Positions 1 through 64,000 are shown, counted from the first letter of the stretch. The stretch: DNA of 64,000 bases from a virus (IMGVR_UViG_3300021356_000011:1-64000); one strand, 5' to 3'. The notes: generated from the sequence alone by a model not told the origin. Translations and numbers: made by a program.

Positions 1-1
1 C

Positions 2-4608: not shown

Positions 4609-4650
4609 TCGGTGCTTTAGGTTTTGCATCACTTCCCCTCTCGGTGATGC

Positions 4651-4685: not shown

Positions 4686-4710
4686 AGGTTTACACGCTAA
4701 GGGAAGACGA

Positions 4711-5268: not shown

Positions 5269-5269
5269 T

Positions 5270-5803: not shown

Positions 5804-5827
5804 TTGAAAATCCGAGAGGGGGAAGTG

Positions 5828-7440: not shown

Positions 7441-7462
7441 GTAACTCAATAGAAAGAACAGC

Positions 7463-9595: not shown

Positions 9596-9615
9596 ATAAT
9601 TACTGAGGAATAGAA

Positions 9616-11253: not shown

Positions 11254-11262
11254 GAGTGAGCT

Positions 11263-11799
11263 ATGGCTTATCCAGACTGGAACGGATTTGCTGACGGAAC
11301 AGTAGTTCAGTCGTCAAAGATGAGCGACATCTTGCTGGCGATAAAGAACCGCATGATCCAGTGCATACCTGATGCAACAGAAAGCACATGCAAGATCACC
11401 AATGATCCCTCCTATCGGATCACACCATCTGATCTTCGATGCTTCAACATCACTCCATCACCTCAGTCCCAGGTAGACCAAGGTGCATGGGATGGTGGTG
11501 CTAACTTGCAGTTGACTGTCAGGACTCGGGTCATCATCACAGTGTTCCTGCCAAACTCTCTCGATGACCCAAGAGAGACTGAATACTTTCATACCGCAAG
11601 CATGTCAGTGCATAACTCCAGGATCGATGTCCTCAAAGCCTTGAGCTTCTGGAATGAGTCTGGCGATAAAGGTACGTTCCTCCTGAACGATCCACTCTCC
11701 CCTGCTGAATGGCACTTCACTAAAGACAAGTCATCTGGCGACATACAGATCGCATTCGATTTGGAGTACGACGAAGACTTGGAGGTCGATTGTGACTGA
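11263..11799 (+). CDS. Putative tail completion/neck protein
   Basis: 178 aa in tail operon; size and composition fit the tail terminator class. Confidence 0.35.
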   Translation: MAYPDWNGFADGTVVQSSKMSDILLAIKNRMIQCIPDATESTCKITNDPSYRITPSDLRCFNITPSPQSQVDQGAWDGGANLQLTVRTRVIITVFLPNSLDDPRETEYFHTASMSVHNSRIDVLKALSFWNESGDKGTFLLNDPLSPAEWHFTKDKSSGDIQIAFDLEYDEDLEVDCD

Positions 11800-13861: not shown

Positions 13862-13873
13862 CGCAGGCATGAC

Positions 13874-14755: not shown

Positions 14756-15816
14756 GTAAAATTGACTGGCAGTGTCCTAAATGTCTTGTCGTTTTTCCTA
14801 ACGTCCCTGATCCTGGCGACAAGGAGATTACTCACCGCTGCCGACCATCTCGTGGTCTTGGTGATACAGTCAAGAAGATCATCGACGTTGCATCTGGCAG
14901 TAAGATCAAGCAGTGTACTCCATGCAAGAACCGACAAGGCAAACTCAACGCTGCCTTTCCATCTGCAATGCCAACCTCTTACATCACAACTGAATTACTT
15001 GCCACTCTCAGTATCCAGATAGCAAGCAAGCTTCCAGCAAAATGCATTGTCATCGGCATGGCTCGCAGTGGCATGCTGCCTGCTTCAATAATCGCCACCT
15101 ACAACCATTGCAGTTTGTACTCCTTAGACCTGACCAACAAGACAATTAAAAATACTGGCTCAGGTCGCAGAGCGAATCAGAGAGTAGGCATCGAGATTAT
15201 TCTCGTTGACGATTCGGTTTGGAGTGGCACCTCAATGAAGGAAGCAGAATCAATTGTCAAAGACACATTCCCTGAGTCCAAGATCCACAAGGTAGCAGTC
15301 ATCGCAAGACCTGCGAGCATGAAAGTCTTAGACCACTTTGCTATTCTTCAGAACTTCCATTTCCTCGAATGGAATTTTCCCAACGCTGAGTTTACTAAGA
15401 ACTACGCATTCGACATGGACGGTACGTTGTGCGACGACTTCACTGAGCCTGATGACGATGATGGCAAGCGATACCTGAAGGCGATGAGGAACATGCCTGC
15501 GACGGCAATCAAGCCGCACAAGTATCCAATCAACATCATCACCGCAAGGCTTGAGAAGTACCGTGAACCCACAATCAAATGGCTGAAGGATCAAGGCTTT
15601 GTGATTGGCAACCTGCACATGGCACCGTGGAAAGACAAGCAGGAACGAGAGCAGAACGACATCATCGCCTGGAAGTCCCAGGTCATCAAAGACAATGGCT
15701 ACGATGGGATGGTTGAATCTAATCCATTCATCGCTGAAGGTATCTTCGTTAAGACTCAGAAGCCTGTTATCTGCAATACAAACAAACAGCTACTGCTTCC
15801 GCAAGGCATGCGATAA
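14752..15816 (+). CDS. Fusion: Cys/GLGD motif + phosphoribosyltransferase + HAD-like domain
   Basis: ATGA overlap with previous stop. RGLGDTVKK..C.PC..R..KLN motif; PRTase GMARSG and ILVDDSVWSGTSM; HAD FDMDGTLC and IITAR. Confidence 0.75.
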   Translation: MSKIDWQCPKCLVVFPNVPDPGDKEITHRCRPSRGLGDTVKKIIDVASGSKIKQCTPCKNRQGKLNAAFPSAMPTSYITTELLATLSIQIASKLPAKCIVIGMARSGMLPASIIATYNHCSLYSLDLTNKTIKNTGSGRRANQRVGIEIILVDDSVWSGTSMKEAESIVKDTFPESKIHKVAVIARPASMKVLDHFAILQNFHFLEWNFPNAEFTKNYAFDMDGTLCDDFTEPDDDDGKRYLKAMRNMPATAIKPHKYPINIITARLEKYREPTIKWLKDQGFVIGNLHMAPWKDKQEREQNDIIAWKSQVIKDNGYDGMVESNPFIAEGIFVKTQKPVICNTNKQLLLPQGMR

Positions 15817-42811: not shown

Positions 42812-45800
42812 ATGTCTATCATCGTCAACGGCAAAGAGTATCCAGACGAGCGTTCGGTCCCAGAGCAGTATCGAATGCAGACCCAGATGGGAACACGGCA
42901 GCGAGATCCTGGGAACTTCAGCCCAGACCTAGCTCCCAATGTAGGTCGCAGCGTATTACCGCATGTGACTACGTTCTCAGGCATGATGTCTACTCTTGCC
43001 AGGACTTATCGTCAGCATGACGAGGCGATTAGGCACAATAAGCACAACGCAAATATGATGCGTCGTGACCCTATGATTATGGGTCCACTGTTTGCTCGAC
43101 AGATGGCAGTGGCTTTGCTCCAATGGCAAGTGCAGCCAGAGGATAGTAGCGATGAGAAGCAGGTGCAGGTCGCTAAAGAATTGACCTTCATGGTTTCTCG
43201 CATTCCTCGGTTCCGAGAATACCTTCGTAACTTGATGGAAGCAGTTTGGTATGGTCGATATGGCATTCAAAATGTTTGGGGGTTCACTAGGGACAGTCGC
43301 GGTGTTCGTTATCGCACTGTTGTTGATTGGGTTCCCGTCAATGGTGACAAACTTTTGTTTCGTTATGATGATGGGACTGGGCGTTATGACCATGATGAAA
43401 TTGGCGTCAAAGTCTCAGTAGCTCATGTCAAAGATGACATCTGGGCTGGTAAGCCTGACATTGAGTGGAACTCTGAAGGAACAGGTGTATTCCTTCGTCG
43501 ATGGGAGCGTAGTCGTTTAGTCGTCCATAAGAACTTCATGATGGACGGTGACTACGAGGATCCAACCACCGCAGGCATGATCCATGGTGTTGGTCTTCGA
43601 CACTTCTTGTATTGGTCTTGGTATCAGAAACAAGAGACTCTCGCTCAGCTTGCAGAAGTGGTTGAGCGAGCAGGTATGGGTTTCACTGTCTACACTTACC
43701 CTGCCGGTAATGCCCAGGCACGAGAAGAGGTCGAGCGTCTAGCAGAAGAGCAGGCACATAAGAATCAAATCGTGCTTCCAATGGAAGTGTCGAATCCTGA
43801 TGCCTACAGCATTCAACAGATCCCACCAAATACGCAAGGCATCATGGCTTTGCAGTCTTTGATTGATGACTACTTTGGTAGCTGGATCATCAAGTTCATC
43901 CTGGGTCAAACACTATCGTATCGAGCAGAAGCGGGTACGCCAGGAATCTCTGATCTGCATCGCGACAGCTTCTTGCAGATTGTGAAGTACGACAGTCTTG
44001 GTGTTGAAGAGACTGTCACCAAAGATCTGATTCGTATGCTGTTGATGTTCAACTTCCCTTCGTATCAGAACGTCAACTTCCAGTTCAAACTGAACACAGA
44101 AGAAGCAGTGCCATTAGAGAAACTGCAAGCACTGCAAGCTGCCTGGAGTATGGGGGCGAAGATTAAATCTGAAGACGTTATGGGTCTTATCGGATTGAAT
44201 GTCGCAGGTGCCACAGATCAAGCTCTCTACAATCCTCAAGTTCTAGCATCACTCAAAGAGTACGAGATGATGGAAGAGCAACAGGAGAAAGAAGAGGAGG
44301 GTGGTCAAGGAACGCAGATCACTGAAAGCCAAGACGAAGCGTTGGCTGCAATGCTTGGTCCTGTCATGCAATCAAAGAGGTACTCCAAATACAGCAATGA
44401 AGATAATTTTGATGTATTTGACGATGCTGATTTTGAAGGCAGTGCTGATGTTCCAATGCCTTCTACTGTCATGCCAACGGGAGAGCAAACAGAAGATCGC
44501 AAAGAGTTAAGGGATGAGTTTGATCCTAAGTTGGACCAAGTCAAGTCAGACGCCACTTTGCATCCAGAAAAGGAAGAGTTTTTCTCCGAGTCTAAAGTGC
44601 GTGACAATGATGGCAAGCTGCTAGTTTTGTATCACGGTACTCCGAATGGAAAATTAGTCCAGCATGACAGAAGACTTTCGGGAGATCCAGATTTAGCTTC
44701 GCATGGTCAAGGTTATTATCACACTGACAACTTAGATGCGGCGAAAGATTATGCTCTTAATAGCGACGGAACAGGGGAAGCGAATCCCGCCGTACATGCT
44801 GTCCATTTAAATATTAAAAATCCTTTTGATGTTAGCAAAGATGAGATTGATTCTAAAGACTTTATTAGTTGGTATAAAGGAACAACTGGGGACGCTGAAT
44901 CTGCGAAGAAGATGATGCAAAAAATTGATGAGATGTCATCTAACGCAGGAAAAATTCCTAGTGACTATGAAAGTCTTAAAGCTTTAGGTGGAGGCACTCA
45001 AAAATATCTTTCGAGATACTTGAGATCAAAGGGGTTTGATGGATTGAAAGCACAGGGCAGTCATGGGCGTCCTGGTCAGCGTTCGATAGATCACACAATC
45101 TACATGGCTTTCCACCCAAGTCAGATTAAATCGGTGAGCAATGTAACGCCATCTGGCGATCCAAGGATGGACTATGTCAAGGACGAGTATGCTAAGAAGA
45201 GCGAAAGCGGGAACTACAAGCCAACTAAGGGAATGATTGGCAATGCTAAGAGAGGCTTGGAACTACGCAAGAAGCACGAGAAGGGCGGGACCGCAGTAGG
45301 TGTTGCTCGTGCTAGAGATATTATAAATGGCAAAGACCTTAGCTTCTCTACCGTTAAACGGATGCACTCATTCTTTAGTCGCCATGCTGGGAACGAAGAG
45401 GGTGGTGAGGATGATGCTGGTTACATCGCATGGTTGTTGTGGGGTGGTGACAGTGGACGCAACTGGGCACGCAGTATTGTAGAGTCAGAGCGTAAAAACC
45501 AAGCTGGCGACGTTGACAATGAAGGTGATCCATCAGTCATTGATACGCCAGAGGAAGACCTGACGGAGCCTGCTCCACAAAGAAGAGGTGAGGACAGCCT
45601 CTTCGGTGCCATTGCCTCTGGTGCGATGGAGGGTGCAACTCGTGGTGCTGCTAGAAGACTGACTGGTCAACAGGGATTCCAGTTTGCTAAAGATGAAGAT
45701 GATGATGGTCTTCGCCAGGGCGGTTTGTTTGACGATGTGCCTGTTAAGGATGACTACATCCCCAAGAAGAAAGAGCCTAAAGCACCTAGCAACGAAAGGC

Positions 45801-48800
45801 AGGGCAGGCTTTTCTCTGAGGATGATCTGCACAATCTTCAGCATGATCTTGAACAAAGAAAGATGTTCGAGAAGAAGAATGATCCTGATCGTTACATGAT
45901 GGATGAGGATGATCGCAAGGAACTTGAGGAGTATCTAAGTAAACAAGAAGAAGGTGATGCCAAGTTCTCTGATTCTGAAATAGAGATGAGGGAAGATCTT
46001 GAGCGAGATCTTAAGAGATACGCTAGTGTAATGCTTGAGAAGTATGGCGATGATGATGAAGACTATGCTGCTGCAACTTTCTTTCTTAAGAACTTAGATC
46101 GTTTTAAAGATTCAGAAGAGTTGCTTTCTTACATAGAAGAGTTTGGTACTGGATTTGATTACGACGAGATAAAAGATAAATGGGACCGAGGAATCTATCA
46201 GATATCTGACCTTGGCGACTCTCCAAGTGAATTGATTGAGAAAGCCTTGGTTCATTTTGGTGAGACAGAAAATCCCAAACAGGCAGGGTATATCTTGCCT
46301 GATGGAACTATGCTTAACTTTGGCTCTGATGGAGTTAGGCATGAAGACCATCGCAGTATTGGTGTTGCATATAAGGAGCATCCTCACCCTGGAGATAAAG
46401 GGAATGACCCAACGGCTTACATGAGCCATTTCATGGATCAGACAGGTGCGATTAGGTGGATGCCTTCAGCACCTGGACTTTCTTTGCATTCTGCTCCAAC
46501 CAAAGCTCAGATGGATACGATTAATAGAAGTCTTGAACTTATGGGCTCAGAAGGTGAAGAGTTTTATTGGGACAGGGATGAGCATGACCCTAAAGGTGAA
46601 AAGGGATATCCGTACAAGACAACGATGACTGGAGACAGTCTCTATTCTCTGCACGACGCTATCAATAGTGATTTTGACGAGGAGTTGATGCAAGAGAATG
46701 AGGATTACAGCAAAGAACCAGAGCGTAATGCTATGGGTGCTGGTCCTCGTGATCACTCTCCTGAAGACTTTGATGTCACCGGAAAGCAGATCAATGGACA
46801 AGCTACAGCCAACAGAGGCACAATGCCCAAGCAGGCAACTCAGTCTTCTATGCCATCTAAGGCAGACAAGGGATCTGTATCTACTAATCCAGTAAGCAAA
46901 ACTGGAATGTCTTCCGATGCTACTCGCATGGATAGAGGTGCTTCTCTAGCCAACATGCGTGACAAGTTCATGAAGTATCGCAAGACCAAGCTGATTGAGA
47001 TGCTTCAGCCATTTGTCCAGGAAGATCCTGACTTCTCGCTGACAGATGCACAGGGCAAGAAGCGTAGGACCAGCCTATTCAAAGCCGACAAGTATTCTCT
47101 TGCGAACACTCTTGCGAGTAAGTATGCCGAGGGTGAAGACCCTTATGCGAGAACTAAACCGCTTGATAGGCATATCGATGGAGTAATTGAGTCTTACGTT
47201 GGTGAAGGCATGGGTGCTGAAGATAAGAAAGACTTATCAGACAGCCTGTACAACACTTGGCGGGATGTGCATAGTGAACATCAAGCTGACGTAAGTGATT
47301 TCAATAAAAACTTAAACAGCTTAGCTCAGCAGTTTGGGTACGAAAGAGCAGAGGGTGCTTTTACTCGAAAGGCTAGGAGTGCAGAAGACGTTGATGCCAT
47401 AAAGCGTCTAGATGAATCTCAGCAGGATTTAGTTAGAAACACAATTAGCTCTGCCGGGAAGCTTGGCCTTAAGGTTTCAGGAGGCGATGACATTGAGAAG
47501 GTCCACTCTGCCCTTATGCATGGTCATCAAAAGCCACTTGGAAAAACGCATGATGATATTTGGAAAGAAGTCATACAGCGAGAAAGGCTTGACGAGTTCT
47601 CAAAAGAGCAGAATGAAGAGGAAGAAGTTCCGCCGATCACAGGAGAAGAAGCGGAGTCTTTACTTGAAGGTCAGAGAGCGGCTACTGAGCAACAGCTAGA
47701 GGAGTTTATCGAAGGCCAGGGTGCTGAAAAGCCAACTCCATCAGCAAATGAACCAGATGAGCCATATGGTTTGGAACCTACTGCTGATCCTGAAGTCCCA
47801 ACTATTAGAGTTGAAGGCGAACTTCCTGTGACAGTAGAGGAGAGCCCTTTAACTAAGATCACCGAATCTGCTTTAGGGGCAGAGAATATCAGGTCGTTCA
47901 TGAGGGGCATTGGTAAGGATCTGGGAGGCATTAGTGTAGAGCATAAAAGGCAATGGTTGGAAGCTAATGATATAGAGCCAAAGAATATTCAGAGTGAAAA
48001 GACTCTTAACTCAATGATCCGCAAATTCATTCGAGAGAAGGCTGAGTCTAAACCTGAAGAAGAGCCTACTCAGCAAGAGTTGTCATTGCAGCCAACCCCA
48101 GAGCCTGTCAAGCCAATCCAGCCTACGCAGGCACAGCTAGACATGGTTCAAGACTTGATCAAGTCGGAGGAGACTCCTGATAAGCTTCAAGGATTCATTA
48201 ACGAATTGAAGGGTGCTGCTGAGTCAGGTGATGCGAAGTCTCTCAATGACATCTTAGAAGAGCGTGATGAATTTGCTTTTGATAAAACCTTGGTGACTGA
48301 TCCAGAGCGTCTTGAGTCTCTCAATGTTTGGATCGACAGTATTGAACAGACTGCCAAGACTGGAGATATGGATGCTGTCAAATCTCTTGCTTCTGGTGAA
48401 GAGCCTGTCAGCATGAGGGCTCTGGATGAAGAGAAGGAAAAGCAGATAGCCCAAGGCCAGCAGGAAAGAGAAAAGCGAGCCGCTCAAGAGAAGCAGGAAG
48501 CAACCTTCCAGCAAAACAGGCAGCGATATTGGGATCAGGTGGGTGAAGAGGAGGGGATGAAGCGGATCCTTGACTTCATCGTATCTGATCAGGCACCTGA
48601 TAAGCTTGAGGGATTTGTCAACAAGCTAAAGGAAGCTGCGGATAGTGGAACTACAAGCGACTTAATTTCTGTTTTGGATGAGTGGGAGCAGACGGAAGAG
48701 GATATTGTTGATCCAGGAGTGAAGCAGGAAGATATCCCCCTGGAACGCAAAAACGATCTCAACGACTGGATAGGTTCTATTGAGGGGCTTGTCAGGTCAG

Positions 48801-49903
48801 GAGATATTGAAGCTGCAAAATCTTTCGCTCGTGGGGAGAAGCCAGTTGAGCTTCCAAGGCTAATTAAAGGAATCTCCAAGGAAACAGGTTTGGTTGAGGG
48901 CGAATTGACTGATGCGGAGAAGCTTGAGCAGCTTAAGCAGGATCAGGAAGAAAGAATAATTCAACGTCGAGCGAAGGCTAGAGCGGCATTTGAAGAGCAG
49001 GAAACCAAAGAACGCAATCAAACATTAAAAGAGCTTAAGGAAATGGCTTTAGATCAGAAAGCTAAAGCTGAGATGTTTGAAAGCAAAACTCCAGTGACAG
49101 CCGATGGGGGAAGGGTTAGCGAAAGCACTATTGATGAGTACCATGCCTCAGCATTGCCTCACTTGGACTCCAGCACTGTAGTTAAGATTGGAGTGGCAGG
49201 AGAGGATAGGGGTGCAATAAGGTTTAGCTCAGATGGTGCTGGAAGCTTTGTAATGGAACATGAGAAGCCTAATGGCGACAAGATCTACTACGATGCTAAG
49301 CAAGCTAAGAAGGCTTTAGGAAAGTCGTTCAATAAGATAGCAGGTCAAGCAATCCTACGAGACAACAAAGCTTGGGCTGGCAAGGCACTAATGGCGGGTC
49401 TTGTGACTCCAGATGCTGCGTCTAAATTAACTAAACCAGCAAGCCAAACCTACATGACAACTCAGATGAAAGCCAAGATTAATGAGGCAGCGATAACTGC
49501 CATGGCAAATCTTGGAACGTCAAATGGCGGCATCAATCTTGGTGACTATAGCAATACAAGGGATGCTGCTGATGCTGCCTTTGACAAGATGCGTGGTCAC
49601 ATGAATGACATCCAAAAGCCTGGAGGGTGGCTGGATACTCTGAAAGGTGCTGGGTTTGCTTACAACGACAAGGCTTCCGTTGCAGACAACTATGTCAACG
49701 GAATGCAGTATGTCATGGAGAAGGCAGGCCAGACAGGTTTTAGAGCCAGCAAGCAGAAGAATGCCGTCGAGAACATGCAGGGTGCAATACAGCATTTGTC
49801 TGAGCAATCTGAAGATGAAAAAGGGTGGAGCCCATGGGCAGTTGCTGGTGGAATCGGCATCTTAGCGGTACTTCTCTTGTTCTACTCGGTAATGAAGGAC
49901 TAG
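42812..49903 (+). CDS. Giant portal polyprotein: DUF935 (Mu gp29-like) portal + ADP-ribosyltransferase-like and further cargo domains + C-terminal TM
   Basis: Portal motifs RRDP.I...L.AR..AV, L.EAVWYG, G.GLR..LYW.W..K, ILGQTLS in the first ~480 aa. ART-like YHGT..G.G.Y.T.....A..YA..LNIKNP..GFDG..F.PSQIKS. Hydrophobic C-terminus. Confidence 0.85.
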   Translation: MSIIVNGKEYPDERSVPEQYRMQTQMGTRQRDPGNFSPDLAPNVGRSVLPHVTTFSGMMSTLARTYRQHDEAIRHNKHNANMMRRDPMIMGPLFARQMAVALLQWQVQPEDSSDEKQVQVAKELTFMVSRIPRFREYLRNLMEAVWYGRYGIQNVWGFTRDSRGVRYRTVVDWVPVNGDKLLFRYDDGTGRYDHDEIGVKVSVAHVKDDIWAGKPDIEWNSEGTGVFLRRWERSRLVVHKNFMMDGDYEDPTTAGMIHGVGLRHFLYWSWYQKQETLAQLAEVVERAGMGFTVYTYPAGNAQAREEVERLAEEQAHKNQIVLPMEVSNPDAYSIQQIPPNTQGIMALQSLIDDYFGSWIIKFILGQTLSYRAEAGTPGISDLHRDSFLQIVKYDSLGVEETVTKDLIRMLLMFNFPSYQNVNFQFKLNTEEAVPLEKLQALQAAWSMGAKIKSEDVMGLIGLNVAGATDQALYNPQVLASLKEYEMMEEQQEKEEEGGQGTQITESQDEALAAMLGPVMQSKRYSKYSNEDNFDVFDDADFEGSADVPMPSTVMPTGEQTEDRKELRDEFDPKLDQVKSDATLHPEKEEFFSESKVRDNDGKLLVLYHGTPNGKLVQHDRRLSGDPDLASHGQGYYHTDNLDAAKDYALNSDGTGEANPAVHAVHLNIKNPFDVSKDEIDSKDFISWYKGTTGDAESAKKMMQKIDEMSSNAGKIPSDYESLKALGGGTQKYLSRYLRSKGFDGLKAQGSHGRPGQRSIDHTIYMAFHPSQIKSVSNVTPSGDPRMDYVKDEYAKKSESGNYKPTKGMIGNAKRGLELRKKHEKGGTAVGVARARDIINGKDLSFSTVKRMHSFFSRHAGNEEGGEDDAGYIAWLLWGGDSGRNWARSIVESERKNQAGDVDNEGDPSVIDTPEEDLTEPAPQRRGEDSLFGAIASGAMEGATRGAARRLTGQQGFQFAKDEDDDGLRQGGLFDDVPVKDDYIPKKKEPKAPSNERQGRLFSEDDLHNLQHDLEQRKMFEKKNDPDRYMMDEDDRKELEEYLSKQEEGDAKFSDSEIEMREDLERDLKRYASVMLEKYGDDDEDYAAATFFLKNLDRFKDSEELLSYIEEFGTGFDYDEIKDKWDRGIYQISDLGDSPSELIEKALVHFGETENPKQAGYILPDGTMLNFGSDGVRHEDHRSIGVAYKEHPHPGDKGNDPTAYMSHFMDQTGAIRWMPSAPGLSLHSAPTKAQMDTINRSLELMGSEGEEFYWDRDEHDPKGEKGYPYKTTMTGDSLYSLHDAINSDFDEELMQENEDYSKEPERNAMGAGPRDHSPEDFDVTGKQINGQATANRGTMPKQATQSSMPSKADKGSVSTNPVSKTGMSSDATRMDRGASLANMRDKFMKYRKTKLIEMLQPFVQEDPDFSLTDAQGKKRRTSLFKADKYSLANTLASKYAEGEDPYARTKPLDRHIDGVIESYVGEGMGAEDKKDLSDSLYNTWRDVHSEHQADVSDFNKNLNSLAQQFGYERAEGAFTRKARSAEDVDAIKRLDESQQDLVRNTISSAGKLGLKVSGGDDIEKVHSALMHGHQKPLGKTHDDIWKEVIQRERLDEFSKEQNEEEEVPPITGEEAESLLEGQRAATEQQLEEFIEGQGAEKPTPSANEPDEPYGLEPTADPEVPTIRVEGELPVTVEESPLTKITESALGAENIRSFMRGIGKDLGGISVEHKRQWLEANDIEPKNIQSEKTLNSMIRKFIREKAESKPEEEPTQQELSLQPTPEPVKPIQPTQAQLDMVQDLIKSEETPDKLQGFINELKGAAESGDAKSLNDILEERDEFAFDKTLVTDPERLESLNVWIDSIEQTAKTGDMDAVKSLASGEEPVSMRALDEEKEKQIAQGQQEREKRAAQEKQEATFQQNRQRYWDQVGEEEGMKRILDFIVSDQAPDKLEGFVNKLKEAADSGTTSDLISVLDEWEQTEEDIVDPGVKQEDIPLERKNDLNDWIGSIEGLVRSGDIEAAKSFARGEKPVELPRLIKGISKETGLVEGELTDAEKLEQLKQDQEERIIQRRAKARAAFEEQETKERNQTLKELKEMALDQKAKAEMFESKTPVTADGGRVSESTIDEYHASALPHLDSSTVVKIGVAGEDRGAIRFSSDGAGSFVMEHEKPNGDKIYYDAKQAKKALGKSFNKIAGQAILRDNKAWAGKALMAGLVTPDAASKLTKPASQTYMTTQMKAKINEAAITAMANLGTSNGGINLGDYSNTRDAADAAFDKMRGHMNDIQKPGGWLDTLKGAGFAYNDKASVADNYVNGMQYVMEKAGQTGFRASKQKNAVENMQGAIQHLSEQSEDEKGWSPWAVAGGIGILAVLLLFYSVMKD

Positions 49904-54427: not shown

Positions 54428-57364
54428 ATGAGCTACCCTAACAACCCACCAGTCCCAGCGAGTATCACCGTCGATGCCACTGCGTCGATTAACAGTGGGT
54501 TGGTGGGGTTCTGGCCCTTGACGGATGGAACTAGTACGAATGCAACAGACCTGTCAACGGGTGGTAATGACGGGACGCTTGTGAGTACTGCTGCGTGGGT
54601 TAGTTCCACCAAGGGTTCGGCTGTAGAACTAGATGCCACTGGTGAATATGTAGACACAAATTTAAGTGGTTCCTATGACATCAGAAGCCAAGAACTATCA
54701 ATCTCAGGGTGGGTTAAATGTGGTACGGAAACGCACACGCAGAGATTCGTTTCAGCTAGAGGTGGAACGACAGGTGCAGGCAGTGAGTATCCACTCGACC
54801 TCTGGACTGTGGCTACGACAGGGAAATGCCGTGTCGCTGCCTACGATGGGACTAGCTCTATCAATGCGGATTCAACCACAACTATTGGGGATGACAATTG
54901 GCATCATATCTGTGGTGTTGCTGATGCCACAAACCTTTATATCTACGTTGACGGCGTACTAGAAAACCAGGTGGCTATTTCGGGGCTATCTAGTTCGAGT
55001 GCTGGGGCCAATGATTTTTATATTGGTCAGACACAGGCTGCAACTGACTCAACGAGGCAGCTTCTTGGCGAGATCCAAAACGTCAGAATCTACAACCGAG
55101 CCCTAACCGCCACCGAAGTCGCAGAACTCTATTCTGTACCGTGGACAGGCACCGACTACGTAGCCCAGAACCTAACGCCCGACACGCCAATCGCCATGGG
55201 TGTAGATCCTAATCACAGCCTGTCGTCTGGCCTCGTAGGATACTGGCCTTTGTCTGAGGGCAGTGGGACGGTAGCGAAGGACTTAACGGGGACCGCAGAC
55301 CTAACATCAACAAACCCTAACTGGGGCGAATCTAGTATTGGTACAGTTGGTGTTTTTCCTAACTCATCAACCGCATCGTTTATCGCATCGTCGTATGTCC
55401 CCGTTTCCGGGGCAGGCGAGTTGTCGGTGAGTGCTTGGTTTAAAACGACATCCGGTGGCGCTGGCAACATTGTGACATGGGGGACATCTGCCGCGGGGCA
55501 AGTGTTTGAGCTTAATGTTGAGGGTGGAGTGCTTTGGTCACGAAATCATAGTGGCAATACCGTATCTGGAGGGAGTGGTTTAAATGACGGAGAATGGCAT
55601 GTCGTAACCTGGACGAAACCAGGAAACGGTACAACATCAGACATAAAAATGTTTGTTGACGGGAAACAGTTATCCGTAACGGCAGGTGGGAGTACCACAC
55701 TCAGTTTTGGAACATCGTCACCGCTGGAAATAGGAGACAGAGGGTACAGTTCTAGTAAATCGTTTGATGGTGAAATTCAAAATGTTCGTGCCTATAACCG
55801 AGTCTTATCAGCTACCGAAGTAGAAGCCCTCTATAACGAGCCCTGGGCAGGCGTAGTGACAGCGAAGTCAGCACCACCGCAGTATCTCACAGTTGACACC
55901 GCAGATAGTATCAACACAGGATTACAGGGCTTCTGGCCCTTGTCTGACAACGATACGACGGCTGTAGATTTGAGCGGGAATGGGAATGACGGGACTGAAA
56001 GTGGTGGCGTTACGTGGTCAGCTGATGATAAGGGACTGAGTGCTAGTTTTGATGGGGTAGATGATAGGTTTGTTCTGAGTAATGGACTTTCGCGTAATCA
56101 AACCGCGATGACTATTTCTGCTTGGGTTAAGCCAGATGTCGTTAGCACTAACACGATGGTTTATTATGAGTCGAATAACACAGGAACCCAATTCACTCGT
56201 ATAAACCTTGTGGTGAACAGCGGAAGTGTTCAAACTGGTGGTCGTGACGACGATGGCGATAGCTTTACGACGTTTGCGCAGTCTAACACAGGTATTGTTG
56301 CAACCAATATTTGGCAGCATCTAGTCGCGGTGGTTGATCCAACTGGTGGTGGGTGCAAGGTGTATTTAGACGGGGAGAATGTAACTAATACATCTAACAA
56401 CACTGGAGACGGGTTCCCAGACACTGACCCTTTGTACTATGCGATTGGTTCACACTCATCAAATTCGTACACTTTCGATGGCAATATCCAAAACGTCAGA
56501 GTCTATAACCGAGCCCTGTCAGCGGCAGAGGTATCCCGCCTCTACCAAGATCCTTGGGCAGGCACTGACCGAGCGATTGAACCATCACCCACGGCTAAAG
56601 ACCTCGACACATCCAGCAGCCTGACAACCAACCTCGTTGGCTGGTGGCCTCTCACTGAGTATGGGCCACAGGATACGCTGGCTTATGATATCAGTGGCAA
56701 TGACTACCACGGCGTAGCTAATGGTGGTGTGCAACGGCAGTTTACTGATACGGTACGGGCTGCGAACCTTGATGGGGTGGATGATAGGTTTGACCTGTCA
56801 ACGCTTGGGGATTACGAAGCACACTCAAACCCGTTGACAGTCAGTATGTGGTGTTACCTGCGGGACGACTCCCTGCAACAGTATTGGTTCAACAAGGCAG
56901 ACTCAGACGCCATGTTCTTTGCATGGACAAACGTCAATGGAAGTTTGGAATTTAAGATTCGGGATCTGACCGTTGTGAACGCCACGGGCAAGATGTACAG
57001 CGGATTAGCTACTAACATTCTCAACCGATGGGCTCATTTGGTTTTTGTATCTTCGGGGACCGATTACACGCTTGCCTCCAACCTTGATGTCTATTTGGAC
57101 GGTGTGGTTCAGACTGCGACCTCGTCAACTAATGGCGACGGGTACACAAGCGGAGAGTCTTCCGTAGGAATGCTTACGCTAGGCGGTAGGTATTATGACA
57201 ACAACCGTAATATGGATGCAATGTTCCAAAACGTCAGAGTCTACAGTCGAGCCTTATCAGCCGCAGAAGTTCAAACACTGTATGATGATCCTTGGGTCGG
57301 ATTGGCTACCGACAGTTTAGTTTACGCATATTACTCCGCTGCCTTCTTGCAGCGTTTAGGCTAA
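54428..57364 (+). CDS. Protein with four tandem LamG domains
   Basis: Four units GLVG.WPL ... QNVR.Y.RAL.A.EV..LY..PW.G. Confidence 0.88.
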   Translation: MSYPNNPPVPASITVDATASINSGLVGFWPLTDGTSTNATDLSTGGNDGTLVSTAAWVSSTKGSAVELDATGEYVDTNLSGSYDIRSQELSISGWVKCGTETHTQRFVSARGGTTGAGSEYPLDLWTVATTGKCRVAAYDGTSSINADSTTTIGDDNWHHICGVADATNLYIYVDGVLENQVAISGLSSSSAGANDFYIGQTQAATDSTRQLLGEIQNVRIYNRALTATEVAELYSVPWTGTDYVAQNLTPDTPIAMGVDPNHSLSSGLVGYWPLSEGSGTVAKDLTGTADLTSTNPNWGESSIGTVGVFPNSSTASFIASSYVPVSGAGELSVSAWFKTTSGGAGNIVTWGTSAAGQVFELNVEGGVLWSRNHSGNTVSGGSGLNDGEWHVVTWTKPGNGTTSDIKMFVDGKQLSVTAGGSTTLSFGTSSPLEIGDRGYSSSKSFDGEIQNVRAYNRVLSATEVEALYNEPWAGVVTAKSAPPQYLTVDTADSINTGLQGFWPLSDNDTTAVDLSGNGNDGTESGGVTWSADDKGLSASFDGVDDRFVLSNGLSRNQTAMTISAWVKPDVVSTNTMVYYESNNTGTQFTRINLVVNSGSVQTGGRDDDGDSFTTFAQSNTGIVATNIWQHLVAVVDPTGGGCKVYLDGENVTNTSNNTGDGFPDTDPLYYAIGSHSSNSYTFDGNIQNVRVYNRALSAAEVSRLYQDPWAGTDRAIEPSPTAKDLDTSSSLTTNLVGWWPLTEYGPQDTLAYDISGNDYHGVANGGVQRQFTDTVRAANLDGVDDRFDLSTLGDYEAHSNPLTVSMWCYLRDDSLQQYWFNKADSDAMFFAWTNVNGSLEFKIRDLTVVNATGKMYSGLATNILNRWAHLVFVSSGTDYTLASNLDVYLDGVVQTATSSTNGDGYTSGESSVGMLTLGGRYYDNNRNMDAMFQNVRVYSRALSAAEVQTLYDDPWVGLATDSLVYAYYSAAFLQRLG

Positions 57365-57376
57365 GGAGAAATAACA

Positions 57377-59005
57377 TTGGCTACCTCTGGAGCATATAAA
57401 AATCAGGCGTTTACTTTTAACTACGCCCTGCCAAAGAGCAGCGACCCTACTGCGTTCTTCACTGGCCCATTTGCAAGTGGAGAGGTGACGTATCGTCTAC
57501 GAAACGGTTCAACGTTGGGTGCTGCTGTGTCCTTGACTCCATTGCCGACGTTTCCAACGCCAAGCACTGGACCGTTCACTGTTGCATTGACTAGTTCAAT
57601 GATGAATGCGGATGAGGTTATCATCGAGTTCATTGCATCTACCAGTGATTTTGCAACTCGTACAGTTTCGATTGTTACAGAACCAACGCCCAGCGATATT
57701 CTGGAAGTACAGCAAACAGCAGTTAGCGGCGTAGCAGATTTCAAGGCGACTGGTTTTAGTACGTTTGATCCTGCTGCTGATACAGTTGCCAATGTCACAA
57801 CGGTGGGATCAGTCAGTGGATCTGTTGGATCTGTTGTTGCGTCTGTGACTGCTGGAACTGTTACGGATAAGTCGGGTTACTTCATCAGTGGATCACTAAC
57901 AACACTCGATGCACTGGAGAACATTGCAGCTACAGACATTGTATCGGCAGGACCGATTACGACTCTCAGTGGTGCAGTTGTTAATGTCGATACGGTCGAT
58001 GTGACTACTACGAACTCTGACATGCGTGGTACTGATAATGCTGCAACGCAAACATCGGTTAACACGATTGATACTGAAGTAGGCCAGATCAAAGCGAAAA
58101 CCGATCAGTTGACATTTACCGTAGCTAATCAAGTCGATGCGAACGCATTGACTGGGGCTAGTGATGCAACAGCATCCAACCAGACGACGATCATCAATCA
58201 TCTGACAGATGTTAAAGGTGCTGGGTGGACTAGCACAGACAACCTTGCTGAGATCACCGAGGATGTGACTGGTTTGAATGGTGATGCCATGCGAGGGACG
58301 GATGGTGCCAATACTACAACGCCTCCAACAGAGGCACAGATCTATGCTGAGTTTGTAGCAGATAGTAACGAAGATGCATTTAAGGCAGATGTGAGTTCAT
58401 TGGCAACTAGTGCCGAAGTCTCTGATCTCAACAACCTGTCATCGAGTGATGTTGCAGCGGCGGTTTGGAATGCTGCCTATGCGAGTTACAACTCGGCAGG
58501 CACCTTCGGCAAGCTCATGGACATCATCCGCAAAAGCAACTTGACCATTGAGGGAAGTGTTGCTGGCACAGGAACGCCGACCACAACAGAGTTTCATACA
58601 GACTTGACCTATGTGGACGATGCTTTTGATGAGCAGATTCTGCTGTTTGTGTCAGGGGCATTGGAGGGTGAGTCACGACCTATCAATCGAAACTTCCAGA
58701 CTGACGGAAGAGTTGTACTGGATGAAGCATTCACCTCTCCACCTACTAGTGGCGATGAGTTTGTCATATTGCCTGAGCATGTTCATAGTCTGGCATCTAT
58801 CTCAGATTCCATACTCAGTCGCAATGTTAGCAATGTGGAAGCTAGTCTTGATGAGCATACGCTTGGAACGATTGTGCTATGTATCCTTGAATCAGTACGA
58901 TCTGGGACTACATGGACGATTAAGCGAAGCGATTCCACTACGACACATGTGACTAAAACATTAACTCTTGATGCATCCGCCCAGCCTGTGATTGGAGTTG
59001 ACTGA
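57377..59005 (+). CDS. Tail fibre-like structural protein
   Basis: Thr/Ser/Asp-rich; DVAAAVWN, IKAKTD, DMRGTD repeats. Confidence 0.55.
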   Translation: MATSGAYKNQAFTFNYALPKSSDPTAFFTGPFASGEVTYRLRNGSTLGAAVSLTPLPTFPTPSTGPFTVALTSSMMNADEVIIEFIASTSDFATRTVSIVTEPTPSDILEVQQTAVSGVADFKATGFSTFDPAADTVANVTTVGSVSGSVGSVVASVTAGTVTDKSGYFISGSLTTLDALENIAATDIVSAGPITTLSGAVVNVDTVDVTTTNSDMRGTDNAATQTSVNTIDTEVGQIKAKTDQLTFTVANQVDANALTGASDATASNQTTIINHLTDVKGAGWTSTDNLAEITEDVTGLNGDAMRGTDGANTTTPPTEAQIYAEFVADSNEDAFKADVSSLATSAEVSDLNNLSSSDVAAAVWNAAYASYNSAGTFGKLMDIIRKSNLTIEGSVAGTGTPTTTEFHTDLTYVDDAFDEQILLFVSGALEGESRPINRNFQTDGRVVLDEAFTSPPTSGDEFVILPEHVHSLASISDSILSRNVSNVEASLDEHTLGTIVLCILESVRSGTTWTIKRSDSTTTHVTKTLTLDASAQPVIGVD

Positions 59006-59148
59006 TGTGGGTATTTGAATGGGTCTTTGGCTGGTTCGGCGGTGGGGATTCTGCTACTTCTGGGGTTTTTACTAAGACTTATCAGAAACCGCCGTTCACT
59101 TCCACTTATTTGAGTGCTTCCGATACTTACACAAAGGCAAGCAAATAA
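59005..59148 (+). CDS. Small protein (47 aa, MWVFEWVFGWFGGG..., not in ORF track)
   Basis: TGATG and TAATG overlaps with both neighbours; SD GGAG. Confidence 0.5.
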   Translation: MWVFEWVFGWFGGGDSATSGVFTKTYQKPPFTSTYLSASDTYTKASK

Positions 59149-59495
59149 TGTCACTTAAAAGATATGCAACAGCGAGCCTTACGCTTGGCAGCACAAGGTT
59201 AGTTCATCATGACATGACAGATGCATTGGAGGTATCAGAAACCATAGCCTCGGTCACTGTCACTGATGTTACAGATAATGGATCTTCAACTGGCGATTTG
59301 TCCATCACGGCTGTCGCTGTGGATGCAGTTGGTTATACGCCTCCATGTTCTCAAACGGCTGTTGCTGCGAATAAGGCTATTCAATTTTCTATTCTTACAT
59401 CTTCATCAACAGACAAGTCTTACAAGCTAAAGATCAGGTGTGTCACAACCGGAGGGGTTGTTGTGGACTATTTATATGTGTCTTTTTCTGATTGA
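59148..59495 (+). CDS. Small Ig-like virion protein (putative)
   Basis: D....L...ETI.S.....Y...I...TT.G pattern; allele of 2..190. Confidence 0.55.
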   Translation: MSLKRYATASLTLGSTRLVHHDMTDALEVSETIASVTVTDVTDNGSSTGDLSITAVAVDAVGYTPPCSQTAVAANKAIQFSILTSSSTDKSYKLKIRCVTTGGVVVDYLYVSFSD

Positions 59496-59505
59496 CATTG
59501 CCTGA

Positions 59506-59535
59506 TTCGTCGCTAAATGAAGATGACTGTATAAT
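59506..59535 (+). promoter_or_regulatory. Putative head-operon promoter (copy B)
   Basis: TTCGTCGCT-N12-CTGTATAAT, same as 201-230. Confidence 0.55.
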
Positions 59536-59570
59536 TTTCAACTAAATTTCGCTTTCATGGATGATTGCAT

Positions 59571-62500
59571 ATGAAGAGTTGGAAGTACGAAAAAGACAAT
59601 GTGACAGGCGAAATCCTTGCTGTTTACCATAGTGTTCCTATTTTTAAGGAGCATACTGGGTCAGATGGTACTGAATACACCAAGGAATTGCTTGAAGCCA
59701 TTGCTGACAACAATAACGACAGGATCGAGGAAACTGGTGATTTCTGTCCTATCGTTGGTTGGCATACTCCATCAGACAATGATCCATCCAAAGACCCGCC
59801 AATCATTGGGTTTGCTGAAAACTTTCGTGTAGAGAAGTTTGGTAAGAAGCAGCCCAAGTGGTGCATCTATGCGACGTTCAAGATCCGCAAGGATAAGCAT
59901 GGATACTTTCGGGACCATCCTCGCCGCAGCGTTGAGATCTGGCCTGAAGATAAACCTGAGAATCGCTACATCGACCCTATTGCGGTGCTTGGTGCTGAAA
60001 CCCCCAGGCAAGACTTAGGCTTGGTCTACAGCAAGTCTGCGGCAGGGGAGGAGTCTTATATGTACTCTTCCGTTGCTGGTGGCGGGAATACCTATGTGCC
60101 GGGCGAGGTTGAGAAGAGTGCAAAAAAGCCTTCGGTAAAAGAGAGAAGAGCAGCATTTGGAGACAGCAAGAGAGTTAAAGCTCCAATCGTCCCAGAAGGC
60201 AAAGAACCAAATTCAAGAGATATTCGCAATCATACCTATGAAATGGTCAAAGCATTCGCTGATGCTTACCCGGTTGATGCGACTCTTAAAGAAGGTGAAC
60301 TTCCCAAAGAGGCAAAGAAAAAGGGAAGAGGAGTTCAACCGGGAGATAGAGTTGCTGTTAGAAGAAACCTGCATGAAAGCCACGCCAATTGGCTTAGGAA
60401 AAACCTTGGTGAAGAAAATTACCAAGAGCTTCTTGAAAGTGTAAAAGCTGACAGGATGGGTGTAACTCCTCAGACAATTCATTCAGCAGTTAAGGGTGGC
60501 AGTGCTGATTTGATAGGTGCTGGGGAAACTGACGAGCAGATTAAAAAGAATATAAGTGAGCTACACAGTACAAGCTGGGGCAATCACCCTCTGGTTCACC
60601 TTAGCGATGTTGATTTTGTTGTCCATGAACTGTCCAGATCAGATATAGCCAAGGGAGTTACTAATAAGAAACCCATGGCATCTGCTAGAGGAAGCTATGA
60701 GCATAGCAATCCTGAAAAGTTTAAGGACTTCCTTGAAAGAAATGCGGGTGATATCCAAGAGATTAGATTTAATCCGATGACGGATCATCACTTTGTTGAT
60801 CTCAATTCACATGCGGTCAAGGGTGCGAAGGAAGCTACCCTGTTCAATGATCGTGTCTATGCAACTGGCGTTGAGTACCTACCTCAAAAGGACTCTGACG
60901 GCTATGTGGCTTATCCGGATGATCCAGACGGCAAGGGTTTTTCTAGGATAGCAGAGGAGTCAGGAACCCTTCATAAGTTTAATAAGGAACAGTATGACAA
61001 GCCGGGACCAAAAGATCCAAGGCGAACTCCTGCTCCTAAAAAGGATCAGGTCAAGGGTAGCGACAAGAATCCCAAAGGATCTGCGTCCAAAGCCAATACT
61101 AAAATTGAGATAAGCGACAAGACCGAAGCCAGCCTGAAGAAAAAGATGCAGGAGCATAATAAGAAAGGCAAAGGCTCCAATGCAACTTTGGGTGCATTGA
61201 AAAGTGTTTATCGCAGAGGTGCTGGAGCGTACAGCAGCAGCCATCATCCCAAAATGTCTAGGCATGGATGGGCCATGGCAAGAGTGAATGCATTCCTAAC
61301 ATTGCTTCGCACTGGCAAGCCCAGTAACTCCAATTACAAGCAAGACAACGACCTGCTGCCGAAGGGGCATCCTAAGAAGTCTAAAAATAGCAAGAAGCAT
61401 GCAGGCATGATTGAAAGCTTGCAGAAATATGCAAAGGAGATGGGAATGCTTTCTCATGAAGAGCTTGGTGGTGAGGGATATACGCATGCTCATAAGTGGG
61501 GCTACCGCCCTAAGGCTGAACAATCTCAGAAGTATGCGGAAGCTGGGCGCCGAGCTTTCAATGAACCTCATGCTGCAACAGCTGAGATCGCAAGAAAATA
61601 TATTGAAGCGAATCGTGATCTCATTGGTGACGCTCACGCTCCTCGACAGATCTCGAAACTTGATCCATCAATTTCAAAGCGAATTGCCGCAGAATATATC
61701 TCAGGGAAGCATGACCCTTCTGACCCTAAGGTCATGAGAGCTTATCAGGCCATGGCAGATGAATCTGCCAAACAAATGCAAGCTTTGACTGATGCTGGCT
61801 ATAAGGTTGAGATGTACCCAGAAGGTGCGGAGCCTTACCCCAATTCGCAGGCGTTGATTGATGATCTAAATCAGAACAAGCACCTCTGGATCTTTCCTAC
61901 CGAAGATGGTTTTGGCGAAGAGCCAATTACCGATGAGGAAAGAAAGATCAACCCGCTGCTGCAAGACTCTGGGTTTAAGGATGCCAATGGCAAACCCATG
62001 CTATTGAATGACACCTTTAGGGCGGTGCATGACTTCTTTGGCCATTCGGAACTGGGCAATGCATTCGGACCTGTCGGTGAGGAGAACGCATGGCAACTGC
62101 ATAGTCGCATGTTCTCACCTGAAGCCCGAAGGGCCGTGACCACAGAGACTCGCGGTCAAAATAGCTGGGTAAACTTTGGACCTCACATTGTCAGAGAAGA
62201 TGGTAGCGTTCCGAAAAGGAGTGACCCGGACTTCAAGCCACTCAAAGATCGCCCATTTGCTGACCAGAAGATGTTTCTATTGTCAGACGACACTGTGTTT
62301 GGCACTGACGATCACGAAGGCGAGCCATTGGAGAAGATGCGAAAGAAAGGCCCGCGAGTCTTTAAGCTTCCTCCCAAGAGCAGGCCAAAAATGTCCAAGG
62401 AAGGCCAATATGCAAAATACGAAGAAACCGAGGATGGTCCTGGGTTGGATTCTTTATTAAATGGAGGAACTGACATGGCACTTGACCAACAGTCAGTCAC

Positions 62501-63455
62501 TCAGATTATCGAAGGCCTCAAGCCGACCATCATCGACATTGTGCAGGAAGAACTGCCAAAGATGCTTGGTTACGACGAGGCCTCTGATGAAATGATTGAT
62601 GACATGGATCAGGAGGAAATGCCTGAGGAAGAGCCTGAAGATGAACTTCAGGAAGAGCCTGAAGATGAGGTCTTGCGGGAAGAACCTGGGGACGAAGATG
62701 AAGACGAAGTTGAGCGGAATGCCAAATGCGAATACGGAAAAGAAATGTTCGCAAAGATGGCAGAGAAGCACAACTTATATGGAAAAGATGCTGACCACAA
62801 AGGTGCATCTCAATACATGGCATCCATGGATGAAGCTGATCGGAATGCTATGGGCATGTACATGAAGAGTGACATGCCGAGCAAGGAAGAGAAAGACGCT
62901 TACGCCAAATGCAATGAATGTGAGAAGAACATGAAAGAAAACTACAGCAAAGCTTCAGAAGGCAGCGAGGCTGATAAGTTCAGAAAGCAACTTGATGAGC
63001 AGGCTGACAAGTTTTCCAAACTTCAGCAGCAATATTCGAAGCTCCAATCTGAGCTTGTTGAAGCTAAGGATCAGCTGACGGAAGCTCGACGAAGCGAGAA
63101 GTATCACAAGATTGCTGACCGCCTCTCCTTGCTTGAAGCCGAAGGCTATGTCTTTGATAAAGAGCAAGAGCTTGAGTTTTGCATGCAGCTGAACGACGAT
63201 CTTCGAGAAGAACATTTGAATGACCGCATCCCCAGCAAGTACACGAAGTCCCCGAGTGGACAAGTTGTACCTGTTGAGAAGTCAGAGGTCATTACTCCTG
63301 TTGAGCAGAAGAGCGTCAAGTACAGCAAGTCTGCACAACAAGCAACTATCGCTTTGCGTTCCCAGGGAGCCAAAGGCGTCGATTATAAGTCCGTTCTCAA
63401 TTGGATGATTGAAAACGATACGGAAGTGTGCCCCACCGTAGAAGACCTGAAGTAA
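59571..63455 (+). CDS. Prohead protease / scaffold polyprotein, allele B with two different cargo domains
   Basis: Protease, DUF5824-like and scaffold parts match allele A; inserts at ~60111-60983 and ~61395-62474 are largely unrelated to allele A. Confidence 0.8.
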   Translation: MKSWKYEKDNVTGEILAVYHSVPIFKEHTGSDGTEYTKELLEAIADNNNDRIEETGDFCPIVGWHTPSDNDPSKDPPIIGFAENFRVEKFGKKQPKWCIYATFKIRKDKHGYFRDHPRRSVEIWPEDKPENRYIDPIAVLGAETPRQDLGLVYSKSAAGEESYMYSSVAGGGNTYVPGEVEKSAKKPSVKERRAAFGDSKRVKAPIVPEGKEPNSRDIRNHTYEMVKAFADAYPVDATLKEGELPKEAKKKGRGVQPGDRVAVRRNLHESHANWLRKNLGEENYQELLESVKADRMGVTPQTIHSAVKGGSADLIGAGETDEQIKKNISELHSTSWGNHPLVHLSDVDFVVHELSRSDIAKGVTNKKPMASARGSYEHSNPEKFKDFLERNAGDIQEIRFNPMTDHHFVDLNSHAVKGAKEATLFNDRVYATGVEYLPQKDSDGYVAYPDDPDGKGFSRIAEESGTLHKFNKEQYDKPGPKDPRRTPAPKKDQVKGSDKNPKGSASKANTKIEISDKTEASLKKKMQEHNKKGKGSNATLGALKSVYRRGAGAYSSSHHPKMSRHGWAMARVNAFLTLLRTGKPSNSNYKQDNDLLPKGHPKKSKNSKKHAGMIESLQKYAKEMGMLSHEELGGEGYTHAHKWGYRPKAEQSQKYAEAGRRAFNEPHAATAEIARKYIEANRDLIGDAHAPRQISKLDPSISKRIAAEYISGKHDPSDPKVMRAYQAMADESAKQMQALTDAGYKVEMYPEGAEPYPNSQALIDDLNQNKHLWIFPTEDGFGEEPITDEERKINPLLQDSGFKDANGKPMLLNDTFRAVHDFFGHSELGNAFGPVGEENAWQLHSRMFSPEARRAVTTETRGQNSWVNFGPHIVREDGSVPKRSDPDFKPLKDRPFADQKMFLLSDDTVFGTDDHEGEPLEKMRKKGPRVFKLPPKSRPKMSKEGQYAKYEETEDGPGLDSLLNGGTDMALDQQSVTQIIEGLKPTIIDIVQEELPKMLGYDEASDEMIDDMDQEEMPEEEPEDELQEEPEDEVLREEPGDEDEDEVERNAKCEYGKEMFAKMAEKHNLYGKDADHKGASQYMASMDEADRNAMGMYMKSDMPSKEEKDAYAKCNECEKNMKENYSKASEGSEADKFRKQLDEQADKFSKLQQQYSKLQSELVEAKDQLTEARRSEKYHKIADRLSLLEAEGYVFDKEQELEFCMQLNDDLREEHLNDRIPSKYTKSPSGQVVPVEKSEVITPVEQKSVKYSKSAQQATIALRSQGAKGVDYKSVLNWMIENDTEVCPTVEDLK

Positions 63456-63496
63456 ACGGGGCCTTGTAGGTCTAGCCACAACTAAGGAGATACACG

Positions 63497-63895
63497 ATGG
63501 CTGATACCTTTTCCTTCAAGGCTGGTGGGAACATTGCACCTAGCCGAATCATTGCTCTTAGCGATGCCTTCACTGTGACCCAAGCTGGTGCCACAGATGA
63601 TGATGACTTGCTAGGAGTGTCCGCTGAAAGCACGAAAGATGCTCCGGGTCTTTCTGGTGCAAGCACCAACCATGCAGAATCGGGCGATCCGGTTCAATAC
63701 TATGGCCCTGGTCAGGTTTGCTTGGTTGAAGCAGGTGCTTCGATTACCGCTCCTGCTCTTTGCACCGCAGATGCCAACGGTCGAGCCGTAGCTGCAACGA
63801 CTGGCGAACGTGCCGTTCTTCGAGTTTTCGAAGACGCTGGTGCGTTGGGTGAGAAGGTTCGAGCATTAGTCATTGATCCTATTGATCTTGACTAA
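63497..63895 (+). CDS. Capsid decoration protein, allele B
   Basis: Homologous to 3114..3509. Confidence 0.7.
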   Translation: MADTFSFKAGGNIAPSRIIALSDAFTVTQAGATDDDDLLGVSAESTKDAPGLSGASTNHAESGDPVQYYGPGQVCLVEAGASITAPALCTADANGRAVAATTGERAVLRVFEDAGALGEKVRALVIDPIDLD

Positions 63896-63934
63896 TTTCC
63901 ATGGATGAACATTTGAGAAACGGAGTTTAATAAC

Positions 63935-64000
63935 ATGGCTGCTGCTTTTCCCGGTCAATTCAATACTTACATTCCAAGTACGGAAGCGACCGACAATTTG
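63935..64000 (+). CDS. Major capsid protein allele B (5' partial)
   Basis: MAAAFPGQFNTYIPSTEATDNL vs MASAPGQFNTYVPSTESTNNL at 3559. Confidence 0.8.
   Translation, partial: MAAAFPGQFNTYIPSTEATDNL

Follow-up and report, generated by a model that had tools for sequence, protein, structure and literature searches.

A swappable gp82-like domain between the putative protease and scaffold parts of a phage head polyprotein is a probable head-delivered cargo

What is a domain of 291 amino acids doing in the middle of a head-maturation gene of a marine phage when the sister copy of that gene bears something else at the same place? The question is raised by IMGVR_UViG_3300021356_000011, a virus record of 74,605 bases in IMG/VR (74.6 kb), of which the first 64 kb were examined (the window). 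The window contains two copies of the gene, which we call gene A and gene B, and each of them bears an insert at a site that we call slot 1 (Table 1). A first-pass annotation had described the insert of gene B (allele B) as an unrelated domain of about 290 residues that replaces a methyltransferase between the same flanks, in frame at both ends, and had taken this as a sign of a cassette-like slot. We favour, and hold to be fairly probable, that the domain is accessory cargo, a swappable cassette in a head-maturation polyprotein that would enter the head by way of the scaffold, be released by the protease and probably be injected.

The boundaries of the exchange were obtained from the DNA alignment of the two genes. 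Positions 1-803 align with 59306-60109 (88% identity) and positions 1393-1796 with 60984-61387 (78%), and nothing aligns between these two blocks. Further on, 2015-2139 matches 62428-62552, and the sequences align at about 70% from 2227 on and 62613 on. The insert of gene B (residues 183-473) is exactly the first block that does not align. It is 873 nt long, which is divisible by three, and both junctions are in frame, so the shared flanks and the in-frame swap were described correctly. The motifs that had been quoted for the insert are all found in the translation, with GDRVAVRRNL at residues 260-269 and QTIH at 303-306, followed by DVDF, IAKG, PMAS, IRFNP, HHFVD and VKGAKEATL. The reading frame of gene B opens with a TTG at 59565, and the likely start is the conserved ATG at 59571. 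The G+C content at third codon positions (GC3) is 0.357 in the insert versus about 0.52 in both flanks. As a separate observation, both slot-1 inserts are lower in GC3 (allele A 0.43, allele B 0.36) than the rest of the genes (about 0.52), which fits an acquisition from a source of lower GC content.

The two alleles could be diverged versions of one ancestral insert, and MAFFT does force a few scattered identities between them. However, hhalign gives the pair a probability of 0.12%, the inserts match different Pfam families and they align neither as DNA nor as protein. Their lengths differ (291 versus 196 aa), and they are unalignable between flanks that are 78-88% identical at the DNA level. 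In addition, a near-isogenic contig bears a third version that is 32% identical. A common ancestor of the two inserts is therefore very improbable. The insert of allele A resembles the class I S-adenosylmethionine-dependent methyltransferases: it scores 23.8 bits on Methyltransf_23 (E 4e-5), below the cut-off of 27, a second variant scores 23.9 bits, the DIGGGRY motif would be motif I, and the best sequence match in the PDB is a type 11 methyltransferase (E 0.079). Judged from the sequences, the cassette is a replacement of the methyltransferase-like insert of the sister strain and not its descendant.

The cassette could also be an assembly chimera that joins unrelated DNA, and the record itself gives some reason for this suspicion, since it covers about 1.26 genome lengths and mixes two strains. 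Its repeat period is 59.3 kb, and positions 59306-74605 are a second pass over 1-15300 (15.3 kb) at 70-88% identity. A relative of 58,786 bases holds one copy of the gene, and other carriers are found on contigs of 57-60 kb. Contigs from two public marine metagenome runs, belonging to two studies, were placed on positions 55000-64000. In the two runs, the summed contig depth was 33-38 until about 59.5 kb and 14-16 from 59.98 kb on, and only short contigs lay over 58.46-59.78 kb. The fall in depth near 59.5-59.9 kb (about 35 before it, about 15 after it) suggests that two strains were merged by a wrap-around assembly. We take them to be two co-occurring, related phages with a near-identical backbone upstream, the assembly having wrapped round from one into the other. 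Positions 59981-64000 were spanned by one long contig in each run, with 1 and 4 differences, and the record may itself derive from one or the other of these runs. In each of the two runs a single contig thus bridges both junctions of the cassette, the open reading frame is uninterrupted over 1296 aa, and the independent contigs L006-L011 show identical slot boundaries. With this, a chimeric origin of the cassette is hardly credible.

Slot 1 was then compared among 24 close carriers, comprising both window genes, the proteins P0107-P0120, the loci L006-L011, which partly overlap the proteins, and the truncated P0151 and P0152. The protease domain of the carriers is 93-96% identical, and P0151 and P0152 are 98-100% identical over the part that they retain. 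Slot 1 is empty, with six residues only, in nine of the 24 and holds the methyltransferase-like insert in seven. The gp82-like version of gene B (v1; the family is introduced below) occurs in this record only (1 of 24), and a second gp82-like version of 244 aa that is 32% identical to it (v2) occurs in five. The remaining two carriers were too rearranged or truncated to score. With further strain variants aligned, slot 1 shows four states in near-identical carriers and behaves as the cassette-like slot that had been proposed. The contig L010 makes the exchange most visible. It is 95.7% identical to the window at the nucleotide level over 60993-65758 (4.8 kb) and 85% identical over 58803-60125, it bears v2 where the window bears v1, and there is no DNA alignment across the slot. 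A sharp break of this kind at conserved flanks is what recombination between them would leave behind when cassettes are exchanged. Slot 2, further downstream, varies independently of slot 1 and holds a basal linker, a phrog_3170 domain or an Ala/Lys-rich extension; DUF5824, which lies between the slots, can be absent among the carriers. When ten further carriers were scanned with Pfam for other kinds of cargo, DUF5824 was all that turned up. Two single loci may be added here as observations: L011:326-4138 has an empty slot 1 and a slot 2 of 594 aa with the phrog_3170 domain and a long Ala/Lys/Thr-rich tract, and L009:325-2961 has the methyltransferase-like insert without DUF5824.

The distribution of the slot-1 states bears on another explanation, in which the domain is an internal component of the head and not an injected effector. 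It would organise the DNA, set the size of the scaffold or core or control the protease, and it would have no host target. The position of the domain between a protease and a scaffold, both purely morphogenetic, agrees with this, as do the very basic DUF5824 and cassette leader, which are like DNA-binding internal proteins, and the fact that no enzymatic family or fold was recognised. However, carriers whose protease domain is 94-96% identical can have an empty slot, which makes its content dispensable for assembly, and the alternative occupant is a methyltransferase-like enzyme. The relatives of the domain, described next, also speak against a purely internal component.

The insert had been thought to look like a folded domain, and the AlphaFold2 (AF2) model agrees with this (predicted template-modelling score 0.74, with a predicted local distance difference test score of about 90 over the insert residues 160-260). 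Profile searches identified the module as a divergent member of the PF25735 (Phage_L5_gp82) superfamily. With phmmer, 104 matches at E<=1e-3 were obtained among 1.84 billion representative proteins. Only one of these, P0003 (3099 aa, E 5e-44), covers nearly the whole insert, and the others share the core. They range from stand-alone proteins of 110-450 aa up to giants of 1.6-6.4 thousand residues, and the matches to P0004-P0017 have E values of 1e-13 to 1e-9. The family is thus found both alone in small proteins and within giant phage polyvalent proteins. The homologues that were scanned score 32-59 bits on PF25735, and the giants also contain LPD38 and ART-PolyVal. Forty-two of the 43 aligned family members match PF25735, and no other family was matched. 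The conserved unit comprises about 210 profile positions (210-250 aa for the full unit), which is roughly twice the Pfam model. A hmmsearch with the 43-member profile found a single copy in the 74.6-kb record, and two adjacent copies are present in six giant polyvalent proteins (P0004-P0007, P0010 and P0014). On the profile evidence, the module belongs to PF25735 at the superfamily level, a catalogued family without an assigned function. The PF25735 match of gene B (Table 1) lies in the C-terminal half of the module, and the v2 allele scores 20.4 bits. Unlike PF25735 at large, the subclade of v1, v2 and P0003 is long-branched, has two helical insertions and shows a GNH motif where the family has a tyrosine.

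A fold search in BFVD returned phage proteins only, namely giants named for PcfJ-like, lysozyme, Zeta toxin or ART-PolyVal domains and small unnamed proteins. Such neighbours in polyvalent proteins, together with the occurrence alone in small proteins, are not what a fixed head component would lead one to expect. The residues kept from the family are R266, N268, Q303, T304, H306, F351, R358, K368, G376, E399, N403, P404, H408, D412, T425, R430 and Y438. The polar set among them, that is all but F351, G376 and P404 and with Q303-T304-x-H306 as one motif, suggests an enzyme or a binder of nucleotides or nucleic acids; this is the weakest step of our argument. An identity as ADP-ribosyltransferase (ART) was considered as a weak lead. 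Protein language-model neighbours at 0.77-0.83 pointed to OspC, DarT, PARP and Arr, and by the calibration of the tool scores below 0.9 are leads only. The identity was unsupported by hhalign, which aligned the gp82-like family with the ART-PolyVal domain of the same genome at a probability of 0.09%, and no ART was among the PDB fold matches of the whole 291-residue model.

Other searches returned little. With tblastn the insert had no match among 50,697 phage records even at E 1, and the close stand-alone homologue P0009, searched likewise, gave one weak match in a Bacillus phage only. A word-indexed search with residues 183-473 among proteins of 712-2268 aa was empty. PADLOC had nothing for the insert and a chance-level match for one family member, and NCBIfam gave nothing. 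Neither the whole protein nor the family profile found a sequence match in the PDB. In the literature, nothing was found on PF25735, L5 gp82 or DUF5824.

The same cargo is found on another head protein. The portal polyprotein is a second cargo carrier of this phage, and P0003, the portal polyprotein of a related phage, starts with an N-terminal Mu-type portal that is 52% identical to the portal of this phage. Residues 1517-1804 of P0003 are the slot-2 domain (52% identity), and directly after it, at 1848-2092, follows the slot-1 cassette of gene B (41%). A quick maximum-likelihood tree was built from 108 copies of the domain. It unites v1, P0003 and v2 in a single clade on a long branch (support 98), and within it v1 pairs with P0003 and not with v2 (support 85). 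The presence of the cassette on a portal polyprotein and this grouping mean that the modules behave as carrier-independent cargo. The portal copy also counts against an internal component working between protease and scaffold, and we regard that explanation as unlikely.

The portal copy also bears on the possibility that the domain acts in the producing cell, as part of a polyprotein that is still intact or has just been cut. Late in infection it might, for instance, modify phage DNA or host factors, and the head gene would be no more than a convenient place of expression. The methyltransferase of allele A could indeed act on replicating DNA before packaging, and the gp82 gene of L5 presumably lies among the small right-arm genes of that phage, outside its virion module. 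Nevertheless, two head-targeted domains enclose the insert exactly, each junction has linkers, the cassette recurs on the portal polyprotein, and the network of polyvalent-protein domains is tied to packaging contexts (PMC5512222). A role in the producing cell is for these reasons quite improbable.

Cargo loading presupposes that gene B encodes a protease and a scaffold. The N-terminal domain has similarity to the fold of T4 gp21 and the herpesvirus protease (assemblin-like), and H67 and S122, 55 residues apart and invariant in 29 relatives, form a putative catalytic His/Ser pair. Residues 1-182 have no match in Pfam, NCBIfam or PHROGs, which hold curated families such as Peptidase_S78, S80 and U35, and we therefore claim that the domain works like a prohead protease, not that it is a member of a sequence family. 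The C-terminal 326 residues are found in every carrier, even in minimal proteins of 358-600 aa, and begin at a conserved methionine; their sole Pfam match is of the coiled-coil type. A GGAG(G) and, at Shine-Dalgarno distance from it, an ATG at the start of this domain are kept in all eight genes examined (A, B and the loci L006-L011), and the conserved internal ribosome-binding site and start suggest a nested, scaffold-only product. The gene downstream of gene B matches the head-scaffolding family phrog_673, and the presumed major capsid gene, the homologue of positions 3559-4608, also lies downstream. In Mu-like phages, and in many others, it is usual for the scaffold gene to lie in frame within the protease gene (PMC2628397). 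Because of the fold, the internal start, the Mu-type portal and the phrog_673 neighbour, the gene is in our reading of the protease-scaffold kind represented by Mu I/Z or lambda C/Nu3, with extra domains in its middle. The fold and the start signal are present, and from them we infer the protease activity and the nested product.

Gene B is like Mu I/Z, gp28/gp29 of the Mu-like KS10, lambda C/Nu3 and P2 gpO in having an N-terminal protease and a C-terminal scaffold in one frame. It also shares with them the internal Shine-Dalgarno sequence and ATG before the scaffold part, and the genome has a Mu-type portal. Unlike these nested genes, gene B has up to about 790 aa of accessory domains between protease and scaffold, and neither its protease nor its scaffold part belongs to a sequence family.

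The cargo would have to be released, and a repeated short motif may mark the places. Gene B contains 15 Y-x-K motifs versus 4.7 expected (z 5.1). They occur at all four domain junctions (Y155, Y477, Y622 and Y949) and nine times in the scaffold-like domain, where 1.3 are expected. Y-x-K may thus be the site that is recognised by the protease.

Table 1. Positions of the genes, domains and sites discussed; residue numbers (res) refer to the protein of gene B
Feature	Position	Strand	Description
Gene B	59571-63455	+	1296 aa: protease, slot 1, DUF5824, slot 2, scaffold-like polyprotein
N-terminal domain	59571-60110	+	Prohead-protease (assemblin-like) fold and linker
Slot 1, allele B	60111-60983	+	Basic/helical leader (res 183-259), then gp82-like module
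Full gp82-like module	60180-60974 (res 206-470)	+	Profile from 43 members, positions 4-215 of 238, E 1e-53
PF25735 match	60582-60863 (res 340-433)	+	26.6 bits, E 6.2e-6
DUF5824 (PF19141)	60984-61394	+	Shared basic domain; 25.8 bits versus cut-off 25
Slot 2, allele B	61395-62474	+	phrog_3170 domain, E 1e-17, HDFFGH motif; absent from allele A
Putative nested start (M971)	62463-62477	+	GGAGG, 7-nt spacer, in-frame ATG at 62475
Acidic tract and helical scaffold-like C-terminal domain	62475-63455	+	Common to all carriers
Junction Y-x-K sites	60027-60035, 60993-61001, 61428-61436, 62409-62417	+	
Gene A	256-3075	+	939 aa; sister copy from a second, related phage genome within the record
Slot 1, allele A	805-1392	+	Methyltransferase-like insert, 196 aa
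Portal polyprotein	42812-49903	+	2363 aa; Portal_Mu E 8e-41, ART-PolyVal E 1e-16, further domains

The slot-2 domain of gene B, for which Pfam has no family, was also followed by tblastn. It has matches of 41-48% identity in cyanophage genes annotated as 'large polyvalent protein', 'RelA/SpoT' or 'lysin' and is found at 35% identity in about 200 mycobacteriophage genomes.

In the reading that we favour, cassettes would be swapped by recombination within the conserved flanking domains. The full-length protein would co-assemble into the procapsid by its scaffold domain, and a nested, scaffold-only product would be present there in larger amounts, as is the case for Mu-like phages and lambda C/Nu3. 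The protease in cis would then cut the linkers, possibly at Y-x-K, and free the cargo inside the head, and the cargo would leave with the DNA and act early in the next host cell. Since the slot can be empty and the alternative occupant is methyltransferase-like, an accessory, host-directed role such as counter-defence is expected. The domain may then be a dispensable anti-defence or host-takeover factor that does a job alternative to that of the methyltransferase. A bolder form of this proposal is possible but doubtful. There, a protease-scaffold protein would have been turned into a modular cargo loader, with fixed slots bounded by Y-x-K and with cassettes exchanged with the portal polyprotein, and the gp82-like module would be an injected anti-defence enzyme of unsolved fold with a conserved R/N/H/K/E/D site and a job alternative to that of a DNA methyltransferase.

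Several points weigh against the cargo reading. Packaging, cleavage and injection are what we infer for an uncultured phage. The usual fate of prohead proteases and scaffolds is to be broken down and removed from the head, and a domain between them might be lost with them. The fold match of the protease is only moderate, and the domain is not recognised by Pfam or PHROGs. Y-x-K is absent within the cargo domains, which is not significant at less than one expected per domain, and the portal polyproteins that bear the same cargo show no enrichment of the motif. On the side of the module, the insert alone scores 26.6 bits on PF25735, 0.4 below the gathering cut-off of 27, and three family-conserved positions differ (N to H270, Y to N340 and Q to E355). 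Finally, no solved structure resembles the AF2 model: a Foldseek search of the PDB with the whole 291-residue model, including its floppy parts, gave a best E of 0.33 at a template-modelling score of about 0.1, so the fold is silent on the activity.

The internal proteins of T4 (IPI-III and Alt) are sent into the prohead, trimmed by gp21 and injected with the DNA. The logic that we propose here is the same, with cargo that enters the prohead, is trimmed by the prohead protease and is injected. In T4, however, the cargo is encoded by separate genes and directed by a short N-terminal targeting peptide, whereas here it is covalently part of the protease-scaffold protein. Alt is among the proteins cited in PMC5512222.

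Effectors that are packaged in the head, injected and fused to MuF or portal domains have been described (Iyer et al. 2017, PMC5512222), and an accessory, host-directed role was proposed there for polyvalent proteins and MuF/portal fusions. Gene B is like the polyvalent proteins of Iyer et al. (2017) in that unrelated domains of the effector type, namely a gp82-like module, DUF5824 and a phrog_3170 domain, are joined in one chain besides protease and scaffold. It is also like them in its head-module context, in that its domains recur in the LPD38/ART-PolyVal proteins of 1.6-6.4 thousand residues and in the cyanophage 'large polyvalent protein', and in that the domains shuffle between relatives. 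Unlike the effectors fused to MuF or portal and unlike the stand-alone giants, the carrier is a prohead protease-scaffold protein, and the cargo is not appended but lies internally at two fixed slots. No description of a protease-scaffold carrier with fixed internal slots was found in PMC5512222 or by literature searches. The family of the domain and multi-domain, head-delivered proteins were already known; the protease-scaffold carrier, the fixed slots and the presence, absence or replacement of the cargo at the level of strains appear to be new.

Proteins that are packed in the head and injected are the first weapons of an infection, and in most known cases they are carried by MuF, by the portal or by short targeting peptides. 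If our reading is true, the protease-scaffold protein would be a third type of carrier. The contents of the slot differ between co-occurring strains, which provides a natural experiment on which accessory functions can be interchanged, namely a methyltransferase, a gp82-like domain or nothing. PF25735 gains a concrete context from this and appears as a dispensable, strain-variable, head-delivered cargo. The arrangement resembles the engineered loading of enzymes into virus-like particles by scaffold fusions, and this likeness may make it useful for design.

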